From an uncultured Planctomycetia bacterium (GTDB lineage Bacteria; Omnitrophota; Gorgyraeia; 1-14-0-20-64-10), in the NCBI GenBank assembly GCA_964372575.1, contig CAYJSX010000002.1:1-26973 (forward strand): a DNA stretch of 26,973 bases, in the 5' to 3' direction. The translations under genes were made by a program, and so were the position numbers. The notes under the pieces were generated by a model. The model searched no databases and was not told the origin of the DNA. It saw only the letters and a list, made by a program, of their open reading frames with translations. The stretch's first letter is position 1, and each line of letters begins with the position of its first letter. This document shows positions 2,815 to 24,815 of the stretch, piece by piece.

Positions 2815-3927
2815 CTACGAACCTGCCGCAGGATGAGCCATCACGGTCTCGCGCAGCTTCGATTCCAGCTCGGAAAAGAGTTTTGGATTTTCCTTCAAAA
2901 AAGCGCGGGCATTCTCCCGCCCCTGGCCCAGCTTCACCTCGCCGTAGGTGAGCCACGTCCCGGTCTTCTGCAAAGTACCGGTCTGGGTTCCCACATCAAT
3001 CAGGTCGCCCGATCGGGAGATCCCCTCGTCCCACATGATGTCGAACTCCGCCTGCCTGAAGGGGGGAGCCACCTTGTTCTTCACCACCCGAACCCGGACG
3101 TGAGAGCCGACCACCTCATCGCCCCGCTTGATGTGCTCAATCCGGCGGATGTCCAGCCGCACCGAGCAATAGAATTTGAGCGCCCTGCCCCCTGGCGTCG
3201 TCTCGGGGTTCCCGTAGAAAACCCCGATCTTTTCCCGAAGCTGATTGATGAAGACGAGCGACGTCTTCGACTTGGAGATCGCCCCGGTGAGCTTGCGCAT
3301 CGCCTGCGACATGAGCCGCGCCTGCAGCCCCACTTGGGCCTGCCCCATCTCCCCCTCGATCTCCGCCTTGGGGACGAGGGCGGCCACCGAGTCCACCACC
3401 ACCAGATCAATCGCATTGGAGCGGATGAGCATCTCGGCGATCTCCAAGGCCTGCTCGCCGGTGTCCGGCTGGCTGATCAGAAGCTCATCCAGATCCACCC
3501 CGATCTTCTTGGCGTAGCCCGGGTCAAAGGCGTGCTCGGCGTCAATGAAGGCGGCCACCCCGCCCCCCCGCTGGGTCTCGGCGATCACCGAAAGGGTGAG
3601 GGTCGTCTTGCCGGAAGACTCCGGCCCGAAGATCTCCACCACCCTGCCCCGCGGGATCCCCCCCACCCCCAGGGCCATATCGAGCGACAAGGAGCCGGTC
3701 GGCAGGGCCGGAACCGGCACCACCGCGTCGCCCCCCAGCTTCATGATCGAGCCCTTGCCGAACTGGCGCTCGATCTGCGCCAACGTCAACTCCAGGGTCT
3801 TCACCCGCCCCGCACGCCTCTCCTCAACCGATTTTGAGGCAGAGTCAGAGGCAACAGGCGCGTGTGTCTCTTTGGTTTCTGCCTTGGCTTTGGTTCGCGG
3901 CATGGCCTTTGTCTCTAAGGTGCCCAT
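2815..3927 (-). CDS. recA: Recombinase A
   Basis: [11 protein letters not shown], Walker [44 protein letters not shown] upstream of ATG 3927. Confidence 0.99.
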
Positions 3928-3962
3928 TATACCCCCTCCTTTTTAGGTTGGCAAGATCCCCC

Positions 3963-3991
3963 ATCTTACCCCAGGCAAGCATATTTGTCAA
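3963..3991 (-). promoter_or_regulatory. Sigma70-type recA promoter
   Basis: Minus strand TTGACA (3991-3986), 17 nt, TAAGAT (3968-3963), with an AT-rich tract upstream. Confidence 0.75.
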
Positions 3992-4041
3992 TAGATAAAA
4001 TAATTTATTATTAGATTAATACCGGAGCCAACCACAACTGC

Positions 4042-4716
4042 CTAGCTGGTAAGATCTTTAGAGAGTTCTTTTCTCCACCGATCAAAGAAGCCCGACAACT
4101 CCTGAAAGGGAACAGGCTGAAGAAGCATCAGCAATTCTGGTGCGTCCCTTTGGAAGGTTTTGATCCTTTCAAAAGCCACCCCCAGCCAATAGAGGTCAAA
4201 ACCAGGATCCTTCTTCTTTGCCCTCTCGATCAATTCCTCGGGCCGAAAGTGCCCCCCCTGAATCAGCGCGTAGATGTCGATGAAATCCCTAAGGGTGGCT
4301 CGACCGAATAAAGCCAGAAACTTACCGGCAGCCAGGTCCTCGAGATTCTCGACCCTTAAGTTGGGGTACCCTGGAAAGACAACGGTGGATTTAAATCGAA
4401 AAGGGGCATCTTGTGCCAAGTGGATCAGGGTGGTCTCTTTTCCCTTTTGGACCGTCAGTTCGACGAACGAACGAAATCCCCTTTGGCGCTGAACCTCCAT
4501 TCCATCATCGGTTCTCAGCCTCTCCTCTAACCGGCGAGAGAACGGGTCAATGAGTTCCTCCGCCGCCGTAAAGAAATCGAGGTCGTTGCTCCTGCGGTGC
4601 TTCAGATAGAACAGGGATAGGGCAGTTCCCCCTACCAGATAGAACTGTTCGCTCTCCGGCACCTTGGGAAACCTCCGGAGGACCGTCTCTTGGGCGTCAT
4701 TAATGATCTGCAACAA
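4042..4716 (-). CDS. AbiEii-like nucleotidyltransferase toxin (copy 1)
   Basis: FYLVGGTALSLFYLKHRRSNDLDFF (GGTA..R.S.D.D motif) and C-terminal K..A...R...RDFID. Confidence 0.85.
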   Translation of the reverse strand: MLQIINDAQETVLRRFPKVPESEQFYLVGGTALSLFYLKHRRSNDLDFFTAAEELIDPFSRRLEERLRTDDGMEVQRQRGFRSFVELTVQKGKETTLIHLAQDAPFRFKSTVVFPGYPNLRVENLEDLAAGKFLALFGRATLRDFIDIYALIQGGHFRPEELIERAKKKDPGFDLYWLGVAFERIKTFQRDAPELLMLLQPVPFQELSGFFDRWRKELSKDLTS

Positions 4717-4966
4717 AATCCTCCCAGAACCTTCTCACCTCGTCGGGAAGAAAGGGCTTCACCCTCTGGAGCGACCCCTCCAACTTTCTCCAGGGAACCG
4801 TTTTTAAGAGCTGTCTCACGTCTTCTGATCCGCCTCGGGTAGTCACCTGTTGAACGTACCCATCCAGCGTGGAGGGCTCCGACAAATCGAGCCGGAGGCC
4901 TTCCCTGAGGAACCAAAATAAGCGCCGATCGGGCGCGATCTTGCACTCTGACAGGGGCTTTTTCAT
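4700..4966 (-). CDS. Small putative antitoxin (DUF6922-like) upstream of toxin 1
   Basis: LFWF...YVQQVTTRGGSEDV...RRFWEDF pattern, similar to 5820..6050. Overlaps the toxin start. ATG 4966 preferred over track start 4984. Family name is from recall, not a search. Confidence 0.7.
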   Translation of the reverse strand: MKKPLSECKIAPDRRLFWFLREGLRLDLSEPSTLDGYVQQVTTRGGSEDVRQLLKTVPWRKLEGSLQRVKPFLPDEVRRFWEDFVADH

Positions 4967-5004
4967 CGATTTTAAGTCTACCACAAAGCTGTCCGCAAAA
5001 AGGA

Positions 5005-5029
5005 AGGCTTACCGCGGGTTACTGACGGC
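5005..5029. repeat. 25-bp direct repeat, copy A (AGGCTTACCGCGGG-N5-GACGGC)
   Basis: 20/25 identical to 5136-5160, including a 14-bp exact core. Confidence 0.75.
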
Positions 5030-5074
5030 GGATAAGGCGGTCTAACCGGCTGAAGCGGTGGATCGCGTTGGAAT

Positions 5075-5112
5075 TACGCGAGGATGAGGCTCTTTAAGGC
5101 CTCGTAGACCTG
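5075..5112 (-). pseudogene. Orphan 3'-end remnant (QVYEALKSLILA*) of the GLEE-linker gene
   Basis: 5078-5112 matches 6162-6196 at 34/35 nt. No start codon; in-frame stops just upstream. Confidence 0.75.
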
Positions 5113-5135
5113 GGGAACGTTCTGTTAGTCGTTTG

Positions 5136-5160
5136 AGGCTTACCGCGGGGTCTCGACGGC
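5136..5160. repeat. 25-bp direct repeat, copy B
   Basis: AGGCTTACCGCGGG-gtctc-GACGGC; matches 5005-5029. Confidence 0.75.
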
Positions 5161-5172
5161 CACGAGGCCTGT

Positions 5173-5817
5173 CTATCCCTGCATGAGCCAAGAAATCTGA
5201 CCTTCGAAGAACTCCACGAGCTGCTCGATGGCCACCGGTTTAATCATCCGAGGGAGTATTTTGACCTCGGTTATCCTCGAGAAGGCCTGAGCCAACCAAT
5301 AATTGTCCAGGCCCAGATGCTTTTCTTTCGCTCGAGGAAGAAGAACCGGTAGGGGATACAACTCCTGGTGAATAAAATACACGTCGACAAAATCCTTAGG
5401 GTCTGACCGGTCGTAAAGGGCAGACAGTTTGTTGCAGGCGATATCCAGGGCGCTGTCCATCCACAGCGCCCATTCCGGACGTTGAACCTTGGCCTCCAGA
5501 CGGTAGGGGCTGGCCAGCGCAAAGTCCATCTCAATCCTCTCTTCCTTTCGATTCACCAGGAAGCACTCCAAGAAGCTTCCCGTGGTTCGCGTGAAGGAAA
5601 CCGTGGCCTGCATCTGTTTGGCCAACTCCTGTACGACAGGCGGCACACGGGAAACGGCTTGAGGATCGTCGGTAAAGAAATCCAGATCATCCGAATACCT
5701 GTGGTGAAGGTAAAAGGCGGACAGGGCCGTGCCGCCCGTGAGATAAAAGTCGTCCCGAAGAGGAGTCTCAGCGAGTTGGGCAAGGAGTTGGCGCTGGAAA
5801 GGGGTGAGGATTTCGAT
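5173..5817 (-). CDS. AbiEii-like nucleotidyltransferase toxin (copy 2), canonical start codon absent (ATC)
   Basis: The frame of the track ORF 5173..5646 stays open upstream: (I)EILTPFQRQLLAQLAETPLRDDFYLTGGTALSAFYLHHRYSDDLDFF. No ATG/GTG/TTG lies between the in-frame TGA in the antitoxin gene and GTG 5646. Confidence 0.8.
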   Translation of the reverse strand: MEILTPFQRQLLAQLAETPLRDDFYLTGGTALSAFYLHHRYSDDLDFFTDDPQAVSRVPPVVQELAKQMQATVSFTRTTGSFLECFLVNRKEERIEMDFALASPYRLEAKVQRPEWALWMDSALDIACNKLSALYDRSDPKDFVDVYFIHQELYPLPVLLPRAKEKHLGLDNYWLAQAFSRITEVKILPRMIKPVAIEQLVEFFEGQISWLMQG

Positions 5818-5819
5818 GG

Positions 5820-6050
5820 CTAGGCGGCCCGGTCAAGCAGGGCGAAATAGGTATCCCAAAAAGAGCGTATTTTTTTCGGCAGGACAAGGGCAGGCAGGGC
5901 CTGCCGGATACTCTCTAGGCCGATGGCCTGTACATCCGAAAGGGTCCCTCGGGTAAGAACACGGCCCAGGTACCAGCGCTTGACCGCTTCCTCTTGCAAG
6001 TCGGCATCAGAGAGATCGTAATCCCACACCAACCGCCGGTTAATCTCCAC
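5820..6050 (-). CDS. Small putative antitoxin (DUF6922-like) upstream of toxin 2
   Basis: LVWDYDL...WYLGRVLTRGTLSDV...IRSFW; SD-like GGGGAGGGG before the GTG. Confidence 0.75.
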   Translation of the reverse strand: MEINRRLVWDYDLSDADLQEEAVKRWYLGRVLTRGTLSDVQAIGLESIRQALPALVLPKKIRSFWDTYFALLDRAA

Positions 6051-6067
6051 CGCCCCTCCCCGCCTTA

Positions 6068-6076
6068 ATTATACCA
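6068..6076 (-). promoter_or_regulatory. Extended -10 promoter of TA pair 2
   Basis: Minus strand TGG-TATAAT, 17 nt upstream of GTG 6050. Confidence 0.6.
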
Positions 6077-6095
6077 TCCAGAGCTGACCTCTGTA

Positions 6096-6159
6096 AGAGA
6101 ACGCTTCTTAAAAGGACACTTCTCTCCAGAGAGAAGTGTCCCAGAGAGAAGCGGTCTCT
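6096..6159. repeat. 64-bp nested palindromic element, copy 1
   Basis: Identical to 9805-9868. Inner 13-bp perfect stem at 6114-6141; outer 13-bp arms with 1 mismatch. Overlaps the TAG of the upstream gene. Confidence 0.92.
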
Positions 6160-6700
6160 AAGCGAAGATGAGGCTCTTTAAGGCCTCGTAGACCTGATCG
6201 AGAGGTTTCCCTTGAAGCCCCAGGTAGGGCGTGGGGATGACGGGGTAGGTTGAGGCCCCAGAGGCCACCGCCTGCACGATCACCACCGGCAGGGCTCCAA
6301 GAGGAAGGGACTCGTTTGGATTGCTCTCTGGGTGACGCTTGACTTCAACAACCCGAAAGTCCTGATAAAGCTGCCGCGTTACGTCTGAGATGAAATCGAC
6401 CTGCAGGTCAATCCCTTCGGGCAATCCCAGCCTCTCCCGAAGCGCCAGCCCCAGGCCCACAAACCCTGGGCCAAAGACCTCCCCGACTCGACCCAGATCA
6501 TCCGGGTCCAGCAGTTTCTCATCAATGAGAACGGCCAAGTTGGCGGCAGAGCCCTTCGCTAGCTCGCCGTAGAAATCCCTCAAAGCTTCCATTCGGTCAT
6601 CGCCACCAATGGCGTTGGCCACCAAGCTCTCCACCTCCTCCAGGCCGGCGGGCTTGGAGGGTGCTGGCCCCTCGGTACCCGGTACCGCTGTCGCCCGCAC
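6158..6700 (-). CDS. C-terminal part (AGLEE linker plus ~158-aa terminal domain) of the frameshifted modular protein
   Basis: Begins with a Pro-rich linker and AGLEE like those in 6580..8439. The frame is open upstream to about 6827. Confidence 0.65.
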   Translation of the reverse strand: MRATAVPGTEGPAPSKPAGLEEVESLVANAIGGDDRMEALRDFYGELAKGSAANLAVLIDEKLLDPDDLGRVGEVFGPGFVGLGLALRERLGLPEGIDLQVDFISDVTRQLYQDFRVVEVKRHPESNPNESLPLGALPVVIVQAVASGASTYPVIPTPYLGLQGKPLDQVYEALKSLIFA

Positions 6701-8439
6701 CTCGGAGCGGACCAGAGGAAGAGGTAAGTGAAATCCACGAGGTGTAGTCTGATAACGTCCAGTTCTTGCCGCATGCCACGCACTGAGTTGCCCGGCTGCT
6801 GCGATTCCAAGGCAGTAACCTTTGCCCTATTCTGATTAATCATCCACAGATTCTCGAAAACCAAATCTTCTAGAACATTAAATGTGAGAACTTGTTGAAA
6901 AGCCTTCTCGCTATCTACGAATGCCTGACCTCGTTTATAAACAATGCGGTCTTCAAACTCGATACCAGAGACAAAGTTTGAGCCAGGACTGTTTCTATTG
7001 AAAGTCTCGAACTCTTCCACGCCCTCATCAAATGCTTTGATCGCTGCCTCTGGTGTCAATGCGACATTAGCCTTATGAAGCTCGGGTTGTTCTCCCCTAG
7101 TCCTGATAACAGCCCATCGCAAGGTCTGATTAGAATCAATTTCTCCTACAAACTTTTTACGCTCCTCTCCTTGTAACTTCCCACGAAGGTATTTTTGAAT
7201 TTCATCTAACCTCTTTTCCTGAGTCTCGCGGATCGTTTCCTCCAGCCCGGAGGGCTTGGGCGGGGTAGGAGTAGAACCTTGAGGAAAATCTGTAGGGGTT
7301 GCTCTAGAAATGCTGCGAAGATAAATACCTATATCGAGCCCTTCAAGCCAGATGACGGGGAAGTGTGGGAGGTTGCTAATGTCGCGAATCTTTCCCGCAT
7401 TTGTACGCGCTTCTCCCGTTATTGGATCCTTCCACGTAATCTGAATTTCTACTCCTTGCTGCATCCAACTCCTATAGGGCTCTGCTGCGCCTTGACCTAA
7501 TTCTCTCAATCCAGCTAGGTTTTTCAACGTCGAAAGGGCTGAAAGTACTGCAAGCTTGTTGTAACCAAATCCCTTTCGAGCCTCACCCTCCTTTTCCCAG
7601 TGTTCCAAGCGTTCGATAATCGGTTTAATGAAACGGATGATGTCTTGCCTGAAACGAATGGTCCCCTTCTCAACTTGGAAAACGAAGGAAGCTCTGTCGT
7701 GGTACGAATAATACTCAGGTAAAGACGTATCCAACCGAACTAAGGTTAGGGCAACCTCATAGCGAAGATCCCTTAACCCACGATGCTCTTCGGAGACCCG
7801 ATCCAAATCAATCTCGGCTGGAGGTACGTACGAGGACAAGTAGCTCCCTTCGACCATTGGCTTACCAAGTAGCCCGAGGATCGTTCTATAGGTTTCTTCC
7901 TGTTGGCCAAAGAGGAGGTCGTAATAGAGCTGCCCTTCGTCCCTCTGCTCATCAGGACGCACCCTCTGTAAGATTTCGGTATCCAGTCGCCAAAGGACAT
8001 GGATCGCTCTAGCGCGGTTCCTTTCCCCAATCTTTTCCTGGCCCACCGAATCATCGGGTAGATTTGCCGTAATCAGGGCAGCGAGGGTACGATCGAATCC
8101 TCTATCGCGTTGACGTAGGATTTCATCGACCTGAGCTTTGAAGTCGTAGCCTACCAGAGCGGGGTCTGGGAACTTCTCCTCCAGGCCGGCCCCTCGACTG
8201 GGCTCAGGGCGAACGGGTGCCAAGGGGCCAGGGGGAACAGGGGGAACAACTTGTGCAAGGCGGCCGATGGCATCGATGGCCTCATCGGGATTGCCGGAGA
8301 GGAGGGCTTCTTCCAGACCGGAGCGTTGCTTCCCTGTTTCAAGCTGGTTCTGGCGCAAGGCAAGGGCGGGGCTGGGCGCGGCGAGGCTGACGCTTAGAAA
8401 AACAGCAAGTAATCGGGGGACGATCGGGTACAGTTTCAT
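6580..8439 (-). CDS. Putative secreted modular hypothetical protein with repeated [AS]GLEE linkers (N-terminal part; probable -1 frameshift near 6700-6740)
   Basis: Signal-peptide-like MKLYPIVPRLLAVFLSVSLAAPSPALA from ATG 8439. GLEE motifs at 8308-8322, 8176-8190 and 7237-7251. No recognised family. Confidence 0.7.
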   Translation of the reverse strand: MKLYPIVPRLLAVFLSVSLAAPSPALALRQNQLETGKQRSGLEEALLSGNPDEAIDAIGRLAQVVPPVPPGPLAPVRPEPSRGAGLEEKFPDPALVGYDFKAQVDEILRQRDRGFDRTLAALITANLPDDSVGQEKIGERNRARAIHVLWRLDTEILQRVRPDEQRDEGQLYYDLLFGQQEETYRTILGLLGKPMVEGSYLSSYVPPAEIDLDRVSEEHRGLRDLRYEVALTLVRLDTSLPEYYSYHDRASFVFQVEKGTIRFRQDIIRFIKPIIERLEHWEKEGEARKGFGYNKLAVLSALSTLKNLAGLRELGQGAAEPYRSWMQQGVEIQITWKDPITGEARTNAGKIRDISNLPHFPVIWLEGLDIGIYLRSISRATPTDFPQGSTPTPPKPSGLEETIRETQEKRLDEIQKYLRGKLQGEERKKFVGEIDSNQTLRWAVIRTRGEQPELHKANVALTPEAAIKAFDEGVEEFETFNRNSPGSNFVSGIEFEDRIVYKRGQAFVDSEKAFQQVLTFNVLEDLVFENLWMINQNRAKVTALESQQPGNSVRGMRQELDVIRLHLVDFTYLFLWSAPRCGRQRYRVPRGQHPPSPPAWRRWRAWWPTPLVAMTEWKL

Positions 8440-8567
8440 TTTCTCACTTGATACCCTAAATCTACCTGATCTTTTTAAAAAAGTCAATACCTAAAATAAA
8501 AAAGATTGTAACTCATTTAAATTTATAAGCTTATGTTGATAAAATCTCAATTACGTTTTACAGAAAT

Positions 8568-8954
8568 TCACGTGGGGTACAACGAAAGGTCTGGGTAAGG
8601 GTAGTCTCTTTGGTTGTAGGTGATAAGGGTCAATCGATGCTGGAGCGCGGTGGCAGCGATCACGGCGTCCACCCACTCTCGAGGGTTTTCTCGGCGGCTG
8701 GAGGCCCGAAGCAAATCTGCCGCCAGACGGGCAATGACCGAATCTACAGAGATCGTGTCCATGGCTTCAAGGAGTATCGCCGTTTTTCGGGTTTCGGAAG
8801 GCTTTGCCCCCGCCCAAACTTCCAGGAGAGATAAGCTTGAACAGGCAAGGGGTTCTGCCGTCTGCTCGGTCAGTCGATCGAGCAAAGAAACGGTATCTTG
8901 CCGATTCCTGAGGACCCAGATCAGGACGTCGGAATCAACCAGGTATCTAGCCAT
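8568..8954 (-). CDS. vapC: PIN-domain (VapC-family) toxin
   Basis: YLVDSDVLI...SLLEVWAG...DAVIAATALQHRLTLITYN..DY acidic PIN motifs. Confidence 0.9.
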   Translation of the reverse strand: MARYLVDSDVLIWVLRNRQDTVSLLDRLTEQTAEPLACSSLSLLEVWAGAKPSETRKTAILLEAMDTISVDSVIARLAADLLRASSRRENPREWVDAVIAATALQHRLTLITYNQRDYPYPDLSLYPT

Positions 8955-9192
8955 GGCGCCTAAGGCGCGCCCGGAAACGGGCGAGGTAGCGGTTCACATC
9001 GGCTTGGGTCTTTAGGTCGGGGTGGTTCTTGTCTGTCCACCCCCCGGCAGCCTCATGGAGCGCCCGCTGGAATTTAAGGGCATGCAACCTGGTCTGGACC
9101 GCCAGGGCAATGAAGTGACTGCGCTTGCGGCTGGGTACAACTTCTTTGAGCTCCCTGGCCAGGTCGTCTGGCAGAACGATTTGGGTCTTCAT
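8947..9192 (-). CDS. VapB-type antitoxin (ribbon-helix-helix-like N-terminus)
   Basis: 81 aa, overlaps the vapC start; MKTQIVLPDDLARELKE..RSHFIALAV; strong SD GGAGGAG. Confidence 0.75.
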   Translation of the reverse strand: MKTQIVLPDDLARELKEVVPSRKRSHFIALAVQTRLHALKFQRALHEAAGGWTDKNHPDLKTQADVNRYLARFRARLRRHG

Positions 9193-9210
9193 CTTTATCT
9201 CCTCCTATCA

Positions 9211-9244
9211 ATACAAGTATATCTACGCTTGTATGGCTTGTCAA
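9211..9244 (-). promoter_or_regulatory. vapBC sigma70 promoter with overlapping inverted-repeat operator
   Basis: TTGACA (9244-9239), 17 nt, TATACT (9221-9216). Inverted repeat ATACAAG (9211-9217) / CTTGTAT (9228-9234). Confidence 0.75.
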
Positions 9245-9266
9245 GTAGCAGATCTTCTGCTATAAA
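9238..9266 (+). promoter_or_regulatory. Candidate cinA-thpR promoter
   Basis: TTGTCA (9238-9243), 17 nt, TATAAA (9261-9266). Palindrome TAGCAGA-tct-TCTGCTA at 9246-9262. Confidence 0.6.
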
Positions 9267-9375
9267 AGTTCCATGACCCCGCCCCTCCCGACCAAGGCAA
9301 TCTCGACGTCAGCCTATCTGCAGAAGTTGAGCATTCGAATATGAGATTACGATGGCTAAGGGCAGGAGGGGCGGG

Positions 9376-10677
9376 GTGAACGCTGAGATTGTGGCGGTAG
9401 GGACTGAGCTGCTGCTGGGCTTCGTGACCAACAGCGACACGGTTTACCTGTCCCGGGTGCTGGCCGGGCTGGGGATTGATTGCTTCCACCATGTGACGGT
9501 TGGGGACAACCAGCAGCGGCTGGGCCAGGCGCTGAAAACAGCCCTGGGGCGGGCCGACCTCGTCATCACCTGCGGCGGCTTGGGCCCCACGGTGGATGAC
9601 ATCACCCTGGAGACGATCGCCTCGGTCACTGGCCGTCCCCTTGGGCTCAATCGCAAGCTCCTTCGGCAGGTCCAGGCCCGCTTCAGCCGCCAGGGAATCC
9701 GGATGCCCAGGTCCAACATCCGCCAGGCGACGATCCCCAAGGGAGCCGTCGTCTTCCCCAACTCGGTCGGCACCGCGCCGGGGTTCCTACTCACCCTTCA
9801 TAAGAGAGAACGCTTCTTAAAAGGACACTTCTCTCCAGAGAGAAGTGTCCCAGAGAGAAGCGGTCTCTTGGTTTGTCTGCCGGGGCCGCCGGCTGAGCTG
9901 ATCCCGATGGTGGAGCGGTACCTCATCCCCCGCTTGAGGCGCTGCGCTGGCAAGACGGTGATCAGCTCCAGGACTCTCAAGGTCACCGGCCTGACCGAAT
10001 CCGAGGTGGACGTTAAGGTCCTGGACATTCTGGCCTTAAAAGGGAAGGCCACCGTTGGCATCTACGCCCATCCAGGCCAGATTGACTTGAGGATCACGGC
10101 CAAGGCCCCTTCCCTGGCGTCCGCCCAACGGTTGATCGGTCGGGTGGAGGCCAAGATCCGGCAGCGGCTTAAGACGCTGATCTTTGGGGCCGATGGGGAG
10201 ACGCTGGAGGGGGTGGTGGGCCGCCTATTAAGGAAGAAGGGCCTGACGCTGGCGGCGGCTGAATCGTGCACAGGGGGGCTGATCCAGCACCGGATCACAG
10301 AGGTGCCGGGCTCTTCCGATTACTTTCGTGGAGGGGTGGTGGCCTACGCCAATGAGCTGAAAGCTCACGGCCTGGGGGTCTCGCCCGCCCTGCTGGCGCG
10401 ATTTGGGGCGGTGAGCGGCCCGGTGGCTCGGGCCATGGCCGAAGGCATTCGAAGGCTGGCGCAATCTGACCTGGGACTTTCGGTCACCGGCATCGCCGGA
10501 CCGACCGGCGGCACCAAGAAAAAGCCGGTGGGGTTGGTTTACATAGCGCTGGCTACGCCGAAGCAAACGAAGGGATATCGCTTTCGATTCACTGGAGACC
10601 GCTCCACCATCAAGTTCAAGGCCTCGCAGGCGGCGTTGGATCTGATGAGGAACTACCTTGAAGGGGTGCCAGGATAA
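9376..10677 (+). CDS. cinA: Competence/damage-inducible protein CinA (MoCF-biosynthesis-like plus PncC/NMN deamidase domains)
   Basis: AEIVAVGTELLLG, TVGDN, GGLGPTVDDIT, LPGPP, AAESCTGGLI, TGIAGPTGG. GTG 9376 follows AGGAGG. Confidence 0.93.
   Translation: MNAEIVAVGTELLLGFVTNSDTVYLSRVLAGLGIDCFHHVTVGDNQQRLGQALKTALGRADLVITCGGLGPTVDDITLETIASVTGRPLGLNRKLLRQVQARFSRQGIRMPRSNIRQATIPKGAVVFPNSVGTAPGFLLTLHKRERFLKGHFSPERSVPERSGLLVCLPGPPAELIPMVERYLIPRLRRCAGKTVISSRTLKVTGLTESEVDVKVLDILALKGKATVGIYAHPGQIDLRITAKAPSLASAQRLIGRVEAKIRQRLKTLIFGADGETLEGVVGRLLRKKGLTLAAAESCTGGLIQHRITEVPGSSDYFRGGVVAYANELKAHGLGVSPALLARFGAVSGPVARAMAEGIRRLAQSDLGLSVTGIAGPTGGTKKKPVGLVYIALATPKQTKGYRFRFTGDRSTIKFKASQAALDLMRNYLEGVPG
9805..9868. 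repeat. 64-bp nested palindromic element, copy 2, in frame inside cinA
   Basis: Identical to 6096-6159; encodes RERFLKGHFSPERSVPERSGL. Confidence 0.92.
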
Positions 10678-10713
10678 ATCCTGGCACCCATAGACGGATA
10701 AATCCTGGCACCC
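10660..10713. repeat. GGTGCCAGG-ataaat-CCTGGCACC palindrome plus an 18-bp half copy at the cinA/thpR junction
   Basis: 10660-10690 is identical (31 bp) to 16964-16994; 10696-10713 repeats 10672-10689; supplies the cinA TAA. Confidence 0.9.
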
Positions 10714-10723
10714 GGTAGGAGCT

Positions 10724-11332
10724 ATGCGCGCCTTCATTGCGGTTGAGTTACCCGAGGAGATCCGGCAAGAGGTGGCTTCTCTTCAAGCCGACCTGCGCGC
10801 TGCAGGGGCCGACGTGAAATGGGTCGAGCCGGTCAATCTCCACCTCACCCTCAAATTCTTGGGTGACATCGAGGAGGCGCAGGTCGGCTCCTTGAAAGAG
10901 GCCCTGCGATCTTCCACCCTTCACCTTCCACCCTTCACCGTTTCTCTAGAGGGCATCGGCGCCTTCCCAAAGACAACATTTCCACGGGTGATCTGGGTGG
11001 GGGTGAGCCAAGGCAAGGAGGAGCTGGAGCTACTGGCTCAGAAAGTAGAGGAAGCGACGAACTCGCTTGGTTTTCCTAAAGAGGAGCGGCCCTTCTCAGC
11101 GCACCTGACCATTGGTCGCGTGGCTGCGGCTAAAGGAGGCCGCACCACTAACCCCTCCTGGCGCGTCCGCTCCGCCAGTGGGTTGGCTGGCTTGATCAAG
11201 AAGCTCCAGGTGGCCGAGTTCTGTGGCAGCAGCCCTGCCCTGATCGATCGGCTGATCCTCTTCCAATCGACCCTCTCCCCCAAAGGCCCCACCTACACCC
11301 CCCAGGGGACGCTCCATTTGGGGACACTCTAG
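10724..11332 (+). CDS. thpR: RNA 2',3'-cyclic phosphodiesterase (2'-5' RNA ligase family)
   Basis: MRAFIAV, two HxT motifs (LHLTLKFLG, AHLTIGR), LFQSTLSPKGPTY; SD AGGAG. Confidence 0.92.
   Translation: MRAFIAVELPEEIRQEVASLQADLRAAGADVKWVEPVNLHLTLKFLGDIEEAQVGSLKEALRSSTLHLPPFTVSLEGIGAFPKTTFPRVIWVGVSQGKEELELLAQKVEEATNSLGFPKEERPFSAHLTIGRVAAAKGGRTTNPSWRVRSASGLAGLIKKLQVAEFCGSSPALIDRLILFQSTLSPKGPTYTPQGTLHLGTL
11120..11184. repeat. Double-hairpin in-frame segment within thpR
   Basis: GTGG-c-TGCGGC..GCCGCA-CCAC and AACCC..CTGGCG..CGCCAG..GGGTT; single copy in the window. Confidence 0.45.
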
Positions 11333-11379
11333 CGTGGTCAGCGAGGTCGTGAGTGAAGTAGTGTGAGCAAGAGTGTCCC
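11321..11379. repeat. GGGACACTCT..AGAGTGTCCC inverted repeat spanning the thpR stop and next start
   Basis: Perfect 10-bp arms at 11321-11330 and 11370-11379, same GGACAC/GTGTCC core as the 64-bp element, followed by T5. Confidence 0.65.
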
Positions 11380-13721
11380 TTTTTAGAGCGTCCCCATTTC
11401 TGGCAGTCGTTTCTCTGGAGCTTCTGCTGGCTGGGTTTCTGGCCGCGAGCCACCGGATGATCGCGGGCCACGACGGCTTTCATTACTTCGCCCTGCAGTA
11501 TTACTTCATGAACGGTGCGGCCGCATCCGGGGAAATCCCCCAGTGGATCCCCTTCATGGCGCAGGGGATGCCTGCCACCTGGTGGTACGCCATCCAAGCG
11601 GCCCCCTGGCAGGCAGCCCTGCTTCAGGCGGCCGGCCTCTTTAAAGGGCTCGACCTTCTTCCTCTTTTCTACGCTGGGATCTTCTGGGATACTCTGCTCC
11701 TTCTCACCGGAACCTGGCTGCTGGCGAGACTCCTCTTTTCCTCCCGGTGGACCGCCTTCTTCGTGACGGTCACCGTGGCAGGCTCCGCCATCTGGACGAG
11801 CCAGCCGTGGTTTAATTTCCATTCCACCTATGCCCTGCCCCTGGCCCTCTACCTGGGGCACCGCTTCTTGGAAACCGGCCGATGGAGGTACCTCCTGATC
11901 TCTGGCAACCTCCTTGCCCTGCAGACCCTGGGGAATCTTCCTTACTTCTTATCGGTCGCCAGTCTGGCCTTTTTCCTCTATTTCCTCTTCTACGCCCTCT
12001 TCAACCTGAAGGAGGTAGGACCTCAGCTTAAGAAGATCCGATGGGGCTGGCCATCAACGGCAACGTTCCTTTTGATCGGCGCCTCATTCCTCGCCGTTTT
12101 TCTTCTGTTGAGAACGGATGTCGATCAAACGCTCCAGTACAACATCGGAAGAAACCCGGATGGAACCACCCCCTTTGATCTCTTCTTGAGTTATGGCTCA
12201 AGCCAGCAAGCGGCCAAGTGGATCGAGCTTCTCCTTCGGGCACCGCTGGCCTTGGACTACACGCTGTACGTGGGCCTGCTGACACTTCCTCTTATCTTTC
12301 TGTTTCCCCTCTCTGCCTCACGGCGGAAGGCCCTGCCCCTGGCGGCTTGCGCCCTCTTCTTTCTCTTCTTCTCGCAGGGCAGCCTTGTCCTGGCCAGAAT
12401 CGGTTACGATCTTTGGCCCTTCATGAAGTTTTACCGCCATCTGGGCCTAACCGCCTGTTGGGCAAAGCTTTTCTTAGCTCTTTTGGCTGGGGCAGGATTT
12501 GAGGTCCTCTTTGTTGAGCGGACGAGAAGGGCCCTGCCGCTTGGGTTGGGGTTGGCGCTGGGGAGTCTGGCGCTTGCCCTCTTTATTCTTGCCCGGAATG
12601 AAGCCCTCTGGGCGGAGCTTATCCCAAGAATCTTTTCTGGGCAGGAGTGGCAAGCCTTCGCCCCCATCTTACAAGGAGATCGGCTCGCCAGCCTCATTCA
12701 AGGGTCTGGCTGGATCTCCCTCTTGGCCGCCCTGGTCGTGACCGGCGCCTGGCTTGGCCGGGGGACGCGATCTCTCTGGATCGCGTTGGCCCTGACCCTG
12801 CAGGTAGCCGATCTTTACGGCTACAAGCTTGCAGATGCCCTCTTAAAAACCGTCCCCTTGACCGGAACGGAGAGGCAGCTCACCCAACTCCAAGAGGTCC
12901 CTTTCGCCCAAAGGCGGCTTCCCCTCGAAGGAAACAAAACCCAAAGGGTTCAGGACTTCGTACGGCTGCCCCCTTTTAGGACGATCGTTGGGATCGTGAA
13001 CCTCTTTCTCTTTGCGGATGAGCCGGGCAGCAGCTTTCGGATCGACTACTGGCAGCGCCCGCTGGATCAGCTCATGCGGGCCTACTGGGGGCAACCGATC
13101 CACGACCGCTCCGTCAAGCCAGCGGGTCTCATCCCATGGCGGGGATTGGATTTCCCTTTAAGGCATCCGGCCGCCGCCAAGGTGGCCGGGGTGACGGAGG
13201 ACAAGATCCGGTTCTTTTCTGACGCCCACGGGATCGAGACCGAAGAGGAGATGGCCCGTCTCATGACCGACGGGGGCTACGCGGGCGACCTCCTCTTGAT
13301 TTTGCCAAGAGAAGGCAGGGTGCCAGGTTTAAAACCTGGCACCCCCCAGCCGTTATCAACCGACGAGCGCCTTGGGCTTGGCCTTGAGGTGACTCGCTTT
13401 GACTCCAACCACCTAGAGTTCTTCGTGACGGTGCCAGGCACCGAACCGGCCTGGGCCTTTTACAGCGATGTCTGGCATCCCAACTGGAGGGCAGCGGTGA
13501 ACGGTAAGCTGGTGCCAGTCTTCAGGGCCAACCTGGCCTACAAGGCCGTCCCGCTGGAAGCCGGCGAAAACAGGGTTCATTTCTTCTTTGAGTCGAAGCG
13601 GCTGACTTGGGCTTATCGGTTCTTTGGAGCCAACGCCCTTGTTTGGGTGGTGGGGGTACTTGGTTTGGCCGGCCGGCTTATCTGGGCAGGAAGCCCCGCC
13701 AATAAAGAAGCCAAAAGCTGA
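11373..13721 (+). CDS. Polytopic membrane protein, YfhO-like (putative GT-C glycosyltransferase)
   Basis: Many TM segments; C-terminal YSDVWHPNWRAAVNGK..VFRAN.AYKAVPLEAGENRVHF typical of YfhO-type proteins. Start uncertain. Confidence 0.65.
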   Translation: MSLFRASPFLAVVSLELLLAGFLAASHRMIAGHDGFHYFALQYYFMNGAAASGEIPQWIPFMAQGMPATWWYAIQAAPWQAALLQAAGLFKGLDLLPLFYAGIFWDTLLLLTGTWLLARLLFSSRWTAFFVTVTVAGSAIWTSQPWFNFHSTYALPLALYLGHRFLETGRWRYLLISGNLLALQTLGNLPYFLSVASLAFFLYFLFYALFNLKEVGPQLKKIRWGWPSTATFLLIGASFLAVFLLLRTDVDQTLQYNIGRNPDGTTPFDLFLSYGSSQQAAKWIELLLRAPLALDYTLYVGLLTLPLIFLFPLSASRRKALPLAACALFFLFFSQGSLVLARIGYDLWPFMKFYRHLGLTACWAKLFLALLAGAGFEVLFVERTRRALPLGLGLALGSLALALFILARNEALWAELIPRIFSGQEWQAFAPILQGDRLASLIQGSGWISLLAALVVTGAWLGRGTRSLWIALALTLQVADLYGYKLADALLKTVPLTGTERQLTQLQEVPFAQRRLPLEGNKTQRVQDFVRLPPFRTIVGIVNLFLFADEPGSSFRIDYWQRPLDQLMRAYWGQPIHDRSVKPAGLIPWRGLDFPLRHPAAAKVAGVTEDKIRFFSDAHGIETEEEMARLMTDGGYAGDLLLILPREGRVPGLKPGTPQPLSTDERLGLGLEVTRFDSNHLEFFVTVPGTEPAWAFYSDVWHPNWRAAVNGKLVPVFRANLAYKAVPLEAGENRVHFFFESKRLTWAYRFFGANALVWVVGVLGLAGRLIWAGSPANKEAKS
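13318..13344. repeat. GGGTGCCAGG-tttaaaa-CCTGGCACCC palindrome, in frame in the YfhO-like gene
   Basis: Perfect 10-bp arms; 27 bp; encodes RVPGLKPGTP. Confidence 0.85.
13429..13443. repeat. Short CGGTGCC-a-GGCACCG palindrome (VPGT)
   Basis: Same 13-bp core GGTGCCAGGCACC as 23349-23361. Confidence 0.55.
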
Positions 13722-15940: not shown

Positions 15941-17337
15941 CGATAGGCGGCCTGCGCTGGAGCAACCGTCTCAGCGACCAGATCGTACTCGTACGTGTCC
16001 ACCACCTTGGCCTTGACGAGTTCTCCGGGCGAAAGGTCTCTGGCGGATTCGAGATGGACCTGGCCGTCCACCTCTGGGGCGTCGGCGTAGGTCCGGCCCA
16101 AATAAAGACGGTCAGGGGTAAAGGGTGAAGGGTGAGGGGGAGAATCTTCACATTCCTCCTCGATCAGCACCTCCACCTCACGGCCCAGCCACCGTTGGTT
16201 GATCTCGGTGGAGATCTCCTGTTGGAGCCGCATGAGGCGGTGAAAACGCTCCTCTTTGACCTTCTCCGGGACCTGGCCGGCCATCCGTTCGGCCGGGGTC
16301 TTGGGCTCAGGCGAGTAAGGGAAAATCCCTAAGCGTTCAAACCGACTCTCTTTGATGAATTGAGCCAGCTCCTTCAGGTGGGCCTCGGTCTCGCCTGGAA
16401 AGCCCACGATGAAGGTGGTTCGGATCGCCACCTCGGGGATCTCGGAGCGCAGCCGCTCCATGAGTCCTCGGATGTGGCGGCCGTCGGTTTCCCTGCGCAT
16501 GGCCGAAAGAAGATCGTCCGAGATGTGCTGAAGCGGAATGTCCAGGTATTTGACCACGTTGGGCAGATCCCGAATCGCCTGGATCAGCTCATCGGTCACG
16601 TGGGCAGGATGGGCATACAGGATCCGAATCCAGCGGATCCCCTCCACCCCAGAAAGGGCGTACAAGAGTCTAGGAAGCTGCGGCCTGCCGTAAAGGTCGG
16701 CCCCGTAGTAGGAGGTGTCCTGCCCGACGAGGTTGAGCTCCACCACGCCCTGGCCAGCAAGCTGCCTGGCATCCTCCAGAAGATCCTCCACGGTTCGGGA
16801 GCGATGGGCCCCGCGGAACTGGGGGATGGAGCAGAAGCTGCAGGCGTGGTCGCAGCCCTCGGAGATCTTGAGATACGCGAAGTGGCTGGGCGTCATCCGG
16901 AACCGGGGATCTTTGGATTCAAACAGAAGGGTCGGAACCGGCGAGGCAACGAAAAATCGCTCCGAAGGGGTGCCAGGATAAATCCTGGCACCCAAAAGTT
17001 CGGGAAGTTTGCGCAGGTCGCCAGGCCCTAAGAAGCCGTCCACCTCTGGCAGGAGCCGCAGGAGATCTTCCCTTTCGCCCCGGCGCTTCTGGGGCAGACA
17101 GCCAGCCACGTAGAGCTTCTTGAGTTTTCCGGAGCGCTTCAAATCGGCCACCTGAAGGATCGTTCCGATCGACTCCTCCTCCGCCTCCCGAATGAAGGCG
17201 CAGGTGTTCACCACCACACAGTCGGCCTGGTTGATCTCTTCGGTGAAGCGGTGGCCCGCAGAAATCAAAAGGCCGGCCAGGTGCTCTGAATCGACCAGGG
17301 TCCTGGCACACCCCAAACTCAAGACATATATTCGCAT
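15937..17337 (-). CDS. rimO: Ribosomal protein uS12 methylthiotransferase RimO
   Basis: LGCA..LVDSE, VNTCAFI, AYLKISEGCDHACSFCSIP, RTTFIVGFPGET, APEVDG TRAM domain. Confidence 0.95.
   Translation of the reverse strand: MRIYVLSLGCARTLVDSEHLAGLLISAGHRFTEEINQADCVVVNTCAFIREAEEESIGTILQVADLKRSGKLKKLYVAGCLPQKRRGEREDLLRLLPEVDGFLGPGDLRKLPELLGARIYPGTPSERFFVASPVPTLLFESKDPRFRMTPSHFAYLKISEGCDHACSFCSIPQFRGAHRSRTVEDLLEDARQLAGQGVVELNLVGQDTSYYGADLYGRPQLPRLLYALSGVEGIRWIRILYAHPAHVTDELIQAIRDLPNVVKYLDIPLQHISDDLLSAMRRETDGRHIRGLMERLRSEIPEVAIRTTFIVGFPGETEAHLKELAQFIKESRFERLGIFPYSPEPKTPAERMAGQVPEKVKEERFHRLMRLQQEISTEINQRWLGREVEVLIEEECEDSPPHPSPFTPDRLYLGRTYADAPEVDGQVHLESARDLSPGELVKAKVVDTYEYDLVAETVAPAQAAYR
16111..16138. 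repeat. 7-bp tandem array (4 units) in frame in rimO
   Basis: GTCAGGG GTAAAGG GTGAAGG GTGAGGG; encodes PHPSPFTPD. Confidence 0.7.
16964..16994. repeat. GGTGCCAGG-ataaat-CCTGGCACC palindrome in frame in rimO
   Basis: 31-bp identity to 10660-10690; encodes LGARIYPGTPS. Confidence 0.9.
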
Positions 17338-24782: not shown

Positions 24783-24791
24783 ACTTTATGG

Positions 24792-24815
24792 GGTGCCAGG
24801 ATTAATCCTGGCACC
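24792..24815. repeat. Perfect 24-bp palindrome GGTGCCAGGATTAATCCTGGCACC
   Basis: Fully self-complementary; supplies the nrnA TAA at 24804-24802. Confidence 0.9.

Follow-up and report, generated by a model that had tools for sequence, protein, structure and literature searches.

Why would the same 64-nt palindrome stand at the end of one gene and, a few kilobases further on, be translated inside another? The question is raised by a 26,973-nt stretch of DNA from an uncultured Omnitrophota bacterium (assembly GCA_964372575.1, contig CAYJSX010000002.1; the window), in which positions 6096-6159 and 9805-9868 agree exactly over 64 nt, a match that cannot be chance within 27 kb. We consider it likely that the 64-mer is a non-autonomous doublet of TIRtron terminal inverted repeats, similar to a REPIN or to a MITE (a miniature transposable element with inverted repeats), and that it is mobilised by a Y1 transposase of the RAYT/TIRYT type. 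What leads us to this reading is the existence, copy number and genomic context of a repeat family, the adjacency of its units to a transposase gene in four genomes, and the translation of several copies straight through the element. The features with which the argument begins are the following.

6096-6159, plus strand: copy 1 of the 64-nt doublet, made up of left unit, 2-nt loop and right unit; the genes on either side of it both run on the minus strand
9805-9868, plus strand: copy 2, the same 64 nt, which CinA reads in frame as R152-L172 (RERFLKGHFSPERSVPERSGL)
6158-6700, minus strand: gene of unknown function, 180 aa, whose stop overlaps copy 1
9352-10677, plus strand: cinA, host gene of copy 2 (Pfam MoCF_biosynth, CinA_KH and CinA; CinA/PncC domains)

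The 64-nt doublet and its family

Each window copy is an inverted repeat with 31-nt arms that are 81% complementary and lie 2 nt apart. Repeat comparison confirmed the nested palindromes described in an earlier note, which had been made from the letters of the window alone: the inner stem GGACACTTCTCTC/GAGAGAAGTGTCC runs for 13 bp with no mismatch, and the outer arms contain a single A.G mismatch. The predicted RNA fold of the element reaches -38.9 kcal/mol on the plus strand and -39.6 on the minus strand (z-scores -6.5 and -5.8, respectively), a stability equalled by none of 200 dinucleotide shuffles. The open reading frame (ORF) at 6158-6700, whose product matches nothing in Pfam or NCBIfam, ends in a TAG that appears as CTA at 6158-6160, and the last two bases of copy 1 are two bases of this stop, the overlap that the note had reported. 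Its reading of copy 2 as 21-22 residues of CinA is also correct, as the copy encodes R152-L172 plus one base between GTAPGF and LPGPP, with a net gain of 18 aa relative to the nearest insert-free homologue; and, as the note said, the TTTT run belongs to the coding strand in the gene upstream of copy 1 and to the non-coding strand in CinA. Judging from the sequence, misassembly of the two copies is unlikely, because reads are longer than the repeat, the reading frame of CinA is unbroken, and orthologues can be aligned to both flanks.

The earlier note had proposed a recently active miniature element, and had tied this proposal to there being more copies than these two. A BLAST search of the source metagenome-assembled genome (MAG), here G000, of which the window is contig C2, returned 44 matches at about 20 sites, comprising at least 16 full-length copies and about 5 halves or fragments. 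G000 comprises 1.5 Mb in 225 contigs, has a G+C content of 60% and a completeness of 80.7%, and is about 89% coding according to gene calls that we made with a codon log-odds model trained on long ORFs. Its closest CinA homologues, by the names of their sources, put it in Omnitrophota. Identities of the full copies are 100, 100, 100, 100, 98, 98, 94, 92, 89, 89, 88, 83, 79, 79, 78 and 75%, one of the four 100% copies carrying an internal 15-nt duplication. With six copies at 98% or above, the identities indicate that the element was recently active and spread recently through this compact Omnitrophota genome, as the note had supposed.

When the copies are aligned, they share a plan in which a unit of about 30 nt is followed by a loop or spacer of 2-16 nt and then by a mirror-image unit. 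Within the unit, an outer box GAGA(A/C)CGC with TTCT is followed by a 4-5-nt spacer, the inner box GGGGACAC, which the copy alignment writes as (G)GGGACAC, and TTCTCTC; the units are thus two tandem boxes, with no notable internal hairpin and no GTAG tag. In what we call subfamily A, the left spacer is A-rich (TTAAAA, TCAAAG and similar) and the complement of the right arm shows CTCGGGG, which makes the palindrome polar. The spacer TTAAAA itself is restricted to the left arm of this one subfamily, and older copies have TCAAAG, TCTTAG or TTCCAGG at this place. Regular-expression counts gave 27 half-units of subfamily A in G000 and about 8 of a sister subfamily B, with the form GGGGACGCTCC-ATTT-GGGGACAC. 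One more distant relative of the latter kind lies in the window, where it overlaps both the stop of a LigT-like gene and the predicted start of the next gene.

11305-11395, plus strand: subfamily B element with GGGGACGCTCCATTTGGGGACAC arms and a 33-nt spacer

The distribution of the element is patchy. Among 40 relatives it is present in G008, G014 and G018 only. The same-genus genome G001 (93% complete and compared over its whole length) holds about 11 subfamily-B half-units, one of them orthologous in position to a G000 copy on contig C86, and contains no subfamily-A copy. Since G001 has B only, with one shared site, the superfamily must be older than the genus, and the expansion of subfamily A took place in the lineage of G000. 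In G008 the element has 12 matches, with identities of up to 90%, and three contigs of this genome begin inside a half element (C13:1-51, C32:1-48 and C21:22-50), two of them with an identical 50-nt start. A scan of public genomes for the inner hairpin found no matches. A looser half-unit pattern gave 37, most of which we set aside as a coding coincidence in ribosomal protein S4 genes (EKCPxEKR), and only one MAG, SBAZ01, proved to be a true relative.

Could the copies instead be kept by selection because they are useful to the host, whether as mRNA-stabilising 3' hairpins, as sites for nucleoid proteins or as an adaptive extension of a CinA loop? REPs are known that stabilise the mRNA upstream of them or that bind gyrase or IHF (PMC3733652), most copies in G000 lie directly after coding regions, and the CinA turn has inserts in many relatives (see below). 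A role as an mRNA-protecting 3' hairpin is conceivable by analogy with REPs. On the other hand, the stems decay in old copies, which carry mismatches without compensation, the same-genus genome G001 does without subfamily A altogether, and no particular CinA peptide is conserved, because the inserts of sister genera are unrelated in sequence and length. Covariation was considered as evidence for a functional hairpin and set aside because it cannot separate the readings, as a transposase that recognised both ends would likewise keep the arms alike; the mismatches of the old copies are in any case uncompensated. We thus regard host utility as extremely improbable, and the uncompensated stem mismatches, together with the lack of any Rfam match to the element, argue for a selfish element rather than a functional hairpin.

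A Y1 transposase beside the repeat

A cognate gene of the RAYT/IS200-like kind had been predicted for the element, and such a gene was found. G000 contains two Y1_Tnp genes, on contigs C223 and C30, of which the first is the candidate.

C223:131-724 of G000: Y1 (HUH) transposase of the RAYT/TIRYT type, 197 aa; Pfam Y1_Tnp, 50.3 bits against a cut-off of 23

At 49% G+C, the gene lies below the 60% of the genome. Its product has the motifs NHTHLLL (containing the HUH motif HTH), WQGRF and the class-2 tyrosine motif YIERNP (Y---NP), after which follow about 60 residues that include a serine motif, WSSY. At a Pfam E-value of 1e-5 or below, Y1_Tnp alone is recognised and no C-terminal helix-turn-helix domain, the extension that subclass 2.1 proteins of TnpA_REP carry, is called; in NCBIfam the best and only match is REP_Tyr_transpos (NF047646). 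A right-arm unit of the element stands 9 nt after the stop codon. By the flank-word test that Bertels et al. (PMC5581495) used for RAYTs, the 12-mers of the 3' flank occur up to 28 times in the genome, compared with fewer than 5 occurrences for 99% of 12-mers. The second Y1 gene (C30:9088-9501, minus strand) has a different setting, with a 32-nt direct repeat on both sides whose core is GGTGCCAGGCACC (region C30:8875-9630).

The same adjacency recurs elsewhere. The closest homologues of the C223 transposase, at 58% identity, are in G014 and G018, two of the three other element-holding genomes. In G014 the gene has a full doublet on its 5' side and a half on its 3' side, and in G018 inverted 30-nt units stand on either side of it; each of the two genomes has its own diverged version of the units. 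Contig SBAZ01000125, from the SBAZ01 MAG (labelled Planctomycetales), encodes a 46%-identical homologue with both inverted units bracketing it, and free doublets lie on other contigs of that MAG. Conversely, the same-genus genome G001, compared over its whole length, lacks both subfamily A and any homologue of the transposase. In most arms the inner box, GGGGACAC or GGGGACAG, fits the TIRYT consensus GGGG[AT][CG]A[CG]. It is reduced to GGACAC in the young left arm, and the outer box GAGA(A/C)CGC falls outside that consensus.

Several observations weigh against a RAYT/TIRYT-driven doublet. The C223 product scores 63.9 bits against NF047646, for which the equivalog cut-off is 80, and a PDB sequence search with it gave no match at E<=0.01. 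In G000 the gene shows one unit only, at its 3' side; the 130 nt of contig that precede its ATG hold a different repeat. G008's best homologue of the transposase is only 40% identical despite that genome's 12 element matches. Because three G008 contigs break inside the element, the cognate gene of G008 may be unassembled. Lastly, comparison with G001, at the three clean junctions described below, allowed neither a target-site duplication nor a precise target to be defined.

Such points might be taken to mean that the element belongs, as a MITE, to another transposon, or that recombination has spread it, and that its adjacency to a Y1 gene is nothing but chance insertion at a gene end. Many gene ends do carry copies, the G000 gene has a unit on one side only, and the assembly of G008, with its many copies, contains no close homologue of the transposase. 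What this explanation does not readily accommodate is that the adjacency recurs in four genomes with flanking units that have diverged along with the gene in each, that in three of them the units bracket the gene as inverted repeats, that the unit has the TIRYT-typical box, and that the clean junctions show no DDE-type target duplication. We accordingly give it little credence and hold it to be highly unlikely.

The doublet shares features with several known systems. A TIRtron is a TIRYT gene with terminal inverted repeats, often GGGGWSAS, that is associated with dimer families of moderate abundance (Di Nocera et al. 2013, PMC3733652), and TIRYT corresponds to subclass 2.1 of TnpA_REP and to group 1 of the RAYTs (Quentin et al. 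2018, PMC6006769; Bertels et al. 2017, PMC5581495). Like these, the system described here combines a Y1 HUH transposase bearing the Y---NP motif with bracketing by inverted repeats rather than with self-folding REPs, and has a GGGGWSAS box in moderately abundant dispersed repeats that are often dimers. It differs in having two tandem boxes per repeat, a short protein (197 aa) and many copies that are read in frame. With the REPIN-RAYT systems (Bertels and Rainey 2011, PMC3116915; TnpA_REP/RayT of E. coli) it shares the doublet of inverted units that makes one long hairpin, a non-autonomous element in tens of copies, and a low-copy Y1 gene whose flanks contain the genome's most repeated short words. 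However, whereas a canonical REP is itself a short palindrome with a GTAG (or CGTC) tag, the units here do not form palindromes of their own and GTAG is absent from them, the copy number of about 20 is low, the protein falls below the NCBIfam RayT cut-off, and the distribution is patchy even within the genus, in contrast to the vertical inheritance described for RAYT groups 2 and 3.

Bacterial MITEs such as the Correia elements of Neisseria are also short, gene-less transposon derivatives that are bounded by terminal inverted repeats and sit at gene ends, where Correia-type MITEs, as here, can alter the expression signals of neighbouring genes. Their parents, however, are insertion sequences of the DDE type, and they duplicate the target (TA for Correia), whereas the clean junctions of the present element show no duplication.

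Taken together, we favour a scheme in which a Y1 (HUH) transposase gene of the RAYT/TIRYT class has these units as its terminal inverted repeats. In appearance the doublet is a TIRtron minus its gene, with the two repeats joined by a 2-nt loop, and it would be copied in trans by the C223 transposase, probably through the single-strand DNA route of the IS200/IS605-RAYT superfamily.

Insertion at gene junctions and the question of orientation

Nearly all copies in G000 touch a gene boundary, and at no fewer than 9 of the 20 sites a stop codon overlaps or abuts the element. Empty sites were sought in G001, and because its DNA is only 70-85% identical to that of G000, just three junctions are clean, those on contigs C49, C80 and C84. 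On C49 the insertion lies immediately before a native TAG, and the response-regulator/GGDEF protein now stops three codons into the element, at the TAA of a TTAAAG spacer. On C80 and C84 it lies immediately after a native TGA; in the former case an ATGA stop/start overlap has been lost, and the phosphoglucomutase-like gene downstream appears to start at a GTG within the element. A copy on C47 provides both a new C-terminus and a stop. Under the TIRtron-doublet reading, copies in so compact a genome would persist only where they do little harm, some of them exactly between genes, next to a stop or start codon or providing or replacing one, and others in frame at surface turns or C-terminal tails, and the inserts would be neutral passengers.

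One pair of copies has a distinctive arrangement. On C88, a gene for a DUF4143/AAA_14 ATPase (3552-4766, minus strand) is bracketed by two same-orientation element copies (G000:C88:3474-4838), and at the syntenic site in G001 (C26:19790-19816) the ATPase gene is absent and two convergent neighbour genes abut. A pair of doublets may thus have moved a host ATPase gene as a composite unit.

The run of T residues beside the palindrome invites a different interpretation, namely that the element is kept or filtered as a terminator, supplying a hairpin and U-run after genes and being required in the opposite orientation inside them. The earlier note had argued for such a filter, and the window itself conforms to it: copy 1 gives a hairpin followed by UUUU on the strand of its upstream gene, and CinA reads the other orientation. 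Genome-wide, four of the five translated copies (CinA, aconitase, the MutY tail and the C40 tail) are likewise in the orientation that lacks the U-run. This 4-to-1 split has the predicted direction but is not significant, and copies downstream of stop codons comprise about 7 in the T-run sense versus 6 in the opposite one. RuvC is a direct counter-example, since it translates the whole element in the T-run orientation. In the predicted fold the U-run, UUUUAAGA, consists of 4 residues situated in an internal loop closed by the outer stem, and a consensus terminator scan of 5700-10200 calls neither window copy, copy 1 having 4 T rather than 5 of 8. Moreover, the TTAAAA spacer is a derived trait of one arm in one subfamily that is kept neither in older copies nor in the G014 relatives, and the copies on C55, C80 and C8 separate co-directional genes that are tightly coupled, so that a terminator there would do harm. 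These comparisons support neither the orientation filter nor the terminator-like character ascribed to copy 1, and we consider the whole terminator explanation very improbable.

The surroundings of copy 1 contain two further genes.

5820-6050, minus strand: DUF6922 gene, separated from copy 1 by 45 nt and downstream of it on this strand
5173-5646: AbiEii gene, forming a toxin-antitoxin-like pair with the DUF6922 gene

Upstream of the DUF6922 gene, and beginning where copy 1 has its outer edge, there is a promoter-like site (6097-6068, minus strand); it consists of CTTACA, an 18-nt gap and TATAAT, with TG ahead of the second hexamer, and matches at the level of the consensus only. A 38-nt direct repeat, 95% identical between its copies at 5075-5112 and 6159-6196, encodes the C-terminus QVYEALKSLI(L/F)A plus a stop. 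These repeats and copy 1 bracket the AbiEii/DUF6922 pair, and base 6159 is at once the last of copy 1 and the first of the right repeat. The region 4000-8350 of the window, including copy 1, has no counterpart in G001.

Translated copies and the CinA turn

Five copies are translated right through: those in CinA, aconitase and RuvC, and those forming the tails of MutY and of a protein encoded on C40. A young copy has no stop other than the TAA in one frame per strand, which leaves four of the six frames open. In the aconitase of C56 (G000:C56:258-3179), the insert ETASLRDSSFSREVSPREAVS near the C-terminus aligns to a gap in the IRP1 structure 3sn2; about 110 residues upstream of it, a different repeat family has contributed a second in-frame insert of about 25 aa, in which PFGKLRTGLVEG occurs. 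RuvC on C138 includes a 25-residue element-encoded stretch in frame, after which the native stop/start overlap is regained, while RuvC of G001 ends in HADRMRKPKEVTG. The element-encoded C-terminal tails belong to MutY (C91) and to the product of the gene upstream of that for acetyl-CoA synthetase (C40). Three of these hosts, CinA, RuvC and MutY, are linked to repair, and intragenic REPs are often located in repair genes (Di Nocera et al., PMC3733652).

The in-frame reading that had been likened to Rickettsia palindromic elements (RPEs) thus holds for CinA, aconitase and RuvC. Following Ogata et al. 2000 as summarised in PMC3733652, RPEs are palindromic inserts of about 20-30 residues that lie in frame in functional genes, at surface positions, as here, and by that summary DNA-repair hosts are prominent among RPEs and intragenic REP dimers, as CinA, RuvC and MutY are in G000. 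Going by the description in the same source, RPEs are longer and differ in architecture. They have no known transposase, unlike the present element, for which a cognate transposase gene has been identified and which also builds stop and start codons at gene junctions.

Invasion of coding sequence in G000 is not confined to this family. Among 817 orthologue pairs (at least 50% identity), internal insertions of 10 aa or more number 55 in G000 as against 11 in G001, and about 30 of the 55 contain 11-mers that are repeated at least 12 times. The repeat-derived insertions show peptide signatures such as KPGT, KGSDP and GAASDSRSH. Several other repeat families are present in G000. The largest is a second palindrome family, larger than that of the 64-mer, with a core consisting of GGGTGCCAGG, an A/T-rich stretch and CCTGGCACCC, one 12-mer of which occurs 92 times in the genome; it is represented in the window at 10664-10689, 13315-13345, 16968-16993 and 24791-24815.

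The CinA insert deserves separate consideration. Alignment with homologues bears out the indel that had been suspected there: the PDB homologues 6mr3 and 4ct8 have a gap at this position, and an AlphaFold2 model of the protein (mean pLDDT 85.9) places the insert between the strands 144-149 and 171-176, with pLDDT below 50 at residues 153-167. In this model a beta-hairpin turn in the N-terminal domain is longer, by about 18-21 residues, on account of the copy. Comparison with G001 could fix neither the exact length of the insert nor a target duplication, because the turn itself differs between the two proteins.

Between GTAPG and LPGPP, about 20 genera of the class have 12 aa. For the family to which the window belongs, the lengths are 31 aa in G000, 36 in G008, 33 in G014, 32 in G005, 31 in G018, 23 in G009, 16 in G017 and 13 in G001. 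The inserts of G008, G005 and G014 are unrelated to that of G000 and to one another, and each belongs to a family dispersed in its own genome (14, 36 and 37 matches, respectively); that of G018 is single-copy. Four genera of one family therefore have four different dispersed repeat families in the same turn, and metagenomic homologues add at least six further peptide types. Within the turn the insertion points vary by 1-3 codons, and in a 20-sequence alignment it is the only internal site with insertions in several sequences. The unrelated, repeat-derived inserts of sister genera and their differing points of entry show that this turn has been hit repeatedly and independently.

Is the turn between GTAPGFLLxL and LxALPGPP then a preferred landing site for unrelated mobile palindromes, rather than merely a tolerated loop? 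We think this unlikely. If it were true, it would imply that the target is chosen by local DNA structure or by the replication context of a repair-linked gene, or else that a longer loop is selected for. The idea that native turns act as insertion-attracting DNA hairpins was examined across 21 genera and rejected as not significant: their longest stems average 4.05, compared with 3.74 +/- 0.21 in shuffles, and 8% of shuffles reach the native value. A single native turn, that of G001 (contig C15; L028:1894-1959, minus strand), contains a perfect 7-bp palindrome, CATTCGG-AATAA-CCGAATG (shuffle p about 0.006), which may be the scar of a former element or may be chance.

Published work has already described REPINs, repeat dimers linked to TIRYT genes, and REP dimers that are read in frame as 20-30 aa, while the literature that we searched describes neither such a doublet nor a RAYT/TIRYT gene for Omnitrophota. 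What the present case adds is a two-box doublet of terminal inverted repeats with an identified transposase, and the recurrent CinA landing site is its one feature that may go beyond the ordinary. A concrete doublet is here linked to a concrete RAYT/TIRYT gene at four independent loci, at which gene and repeats have diverged together. The case also shows how far the invasion of coding sequence can go in an ultra-compact genome, and for annotation it means that repeats are often the source of stops, starts, C-terminal tails and "extra loops" in these MAGs. Finally, the CinA turn with its recurrent hits offers a testable case for telling insertion preference from tolerance.

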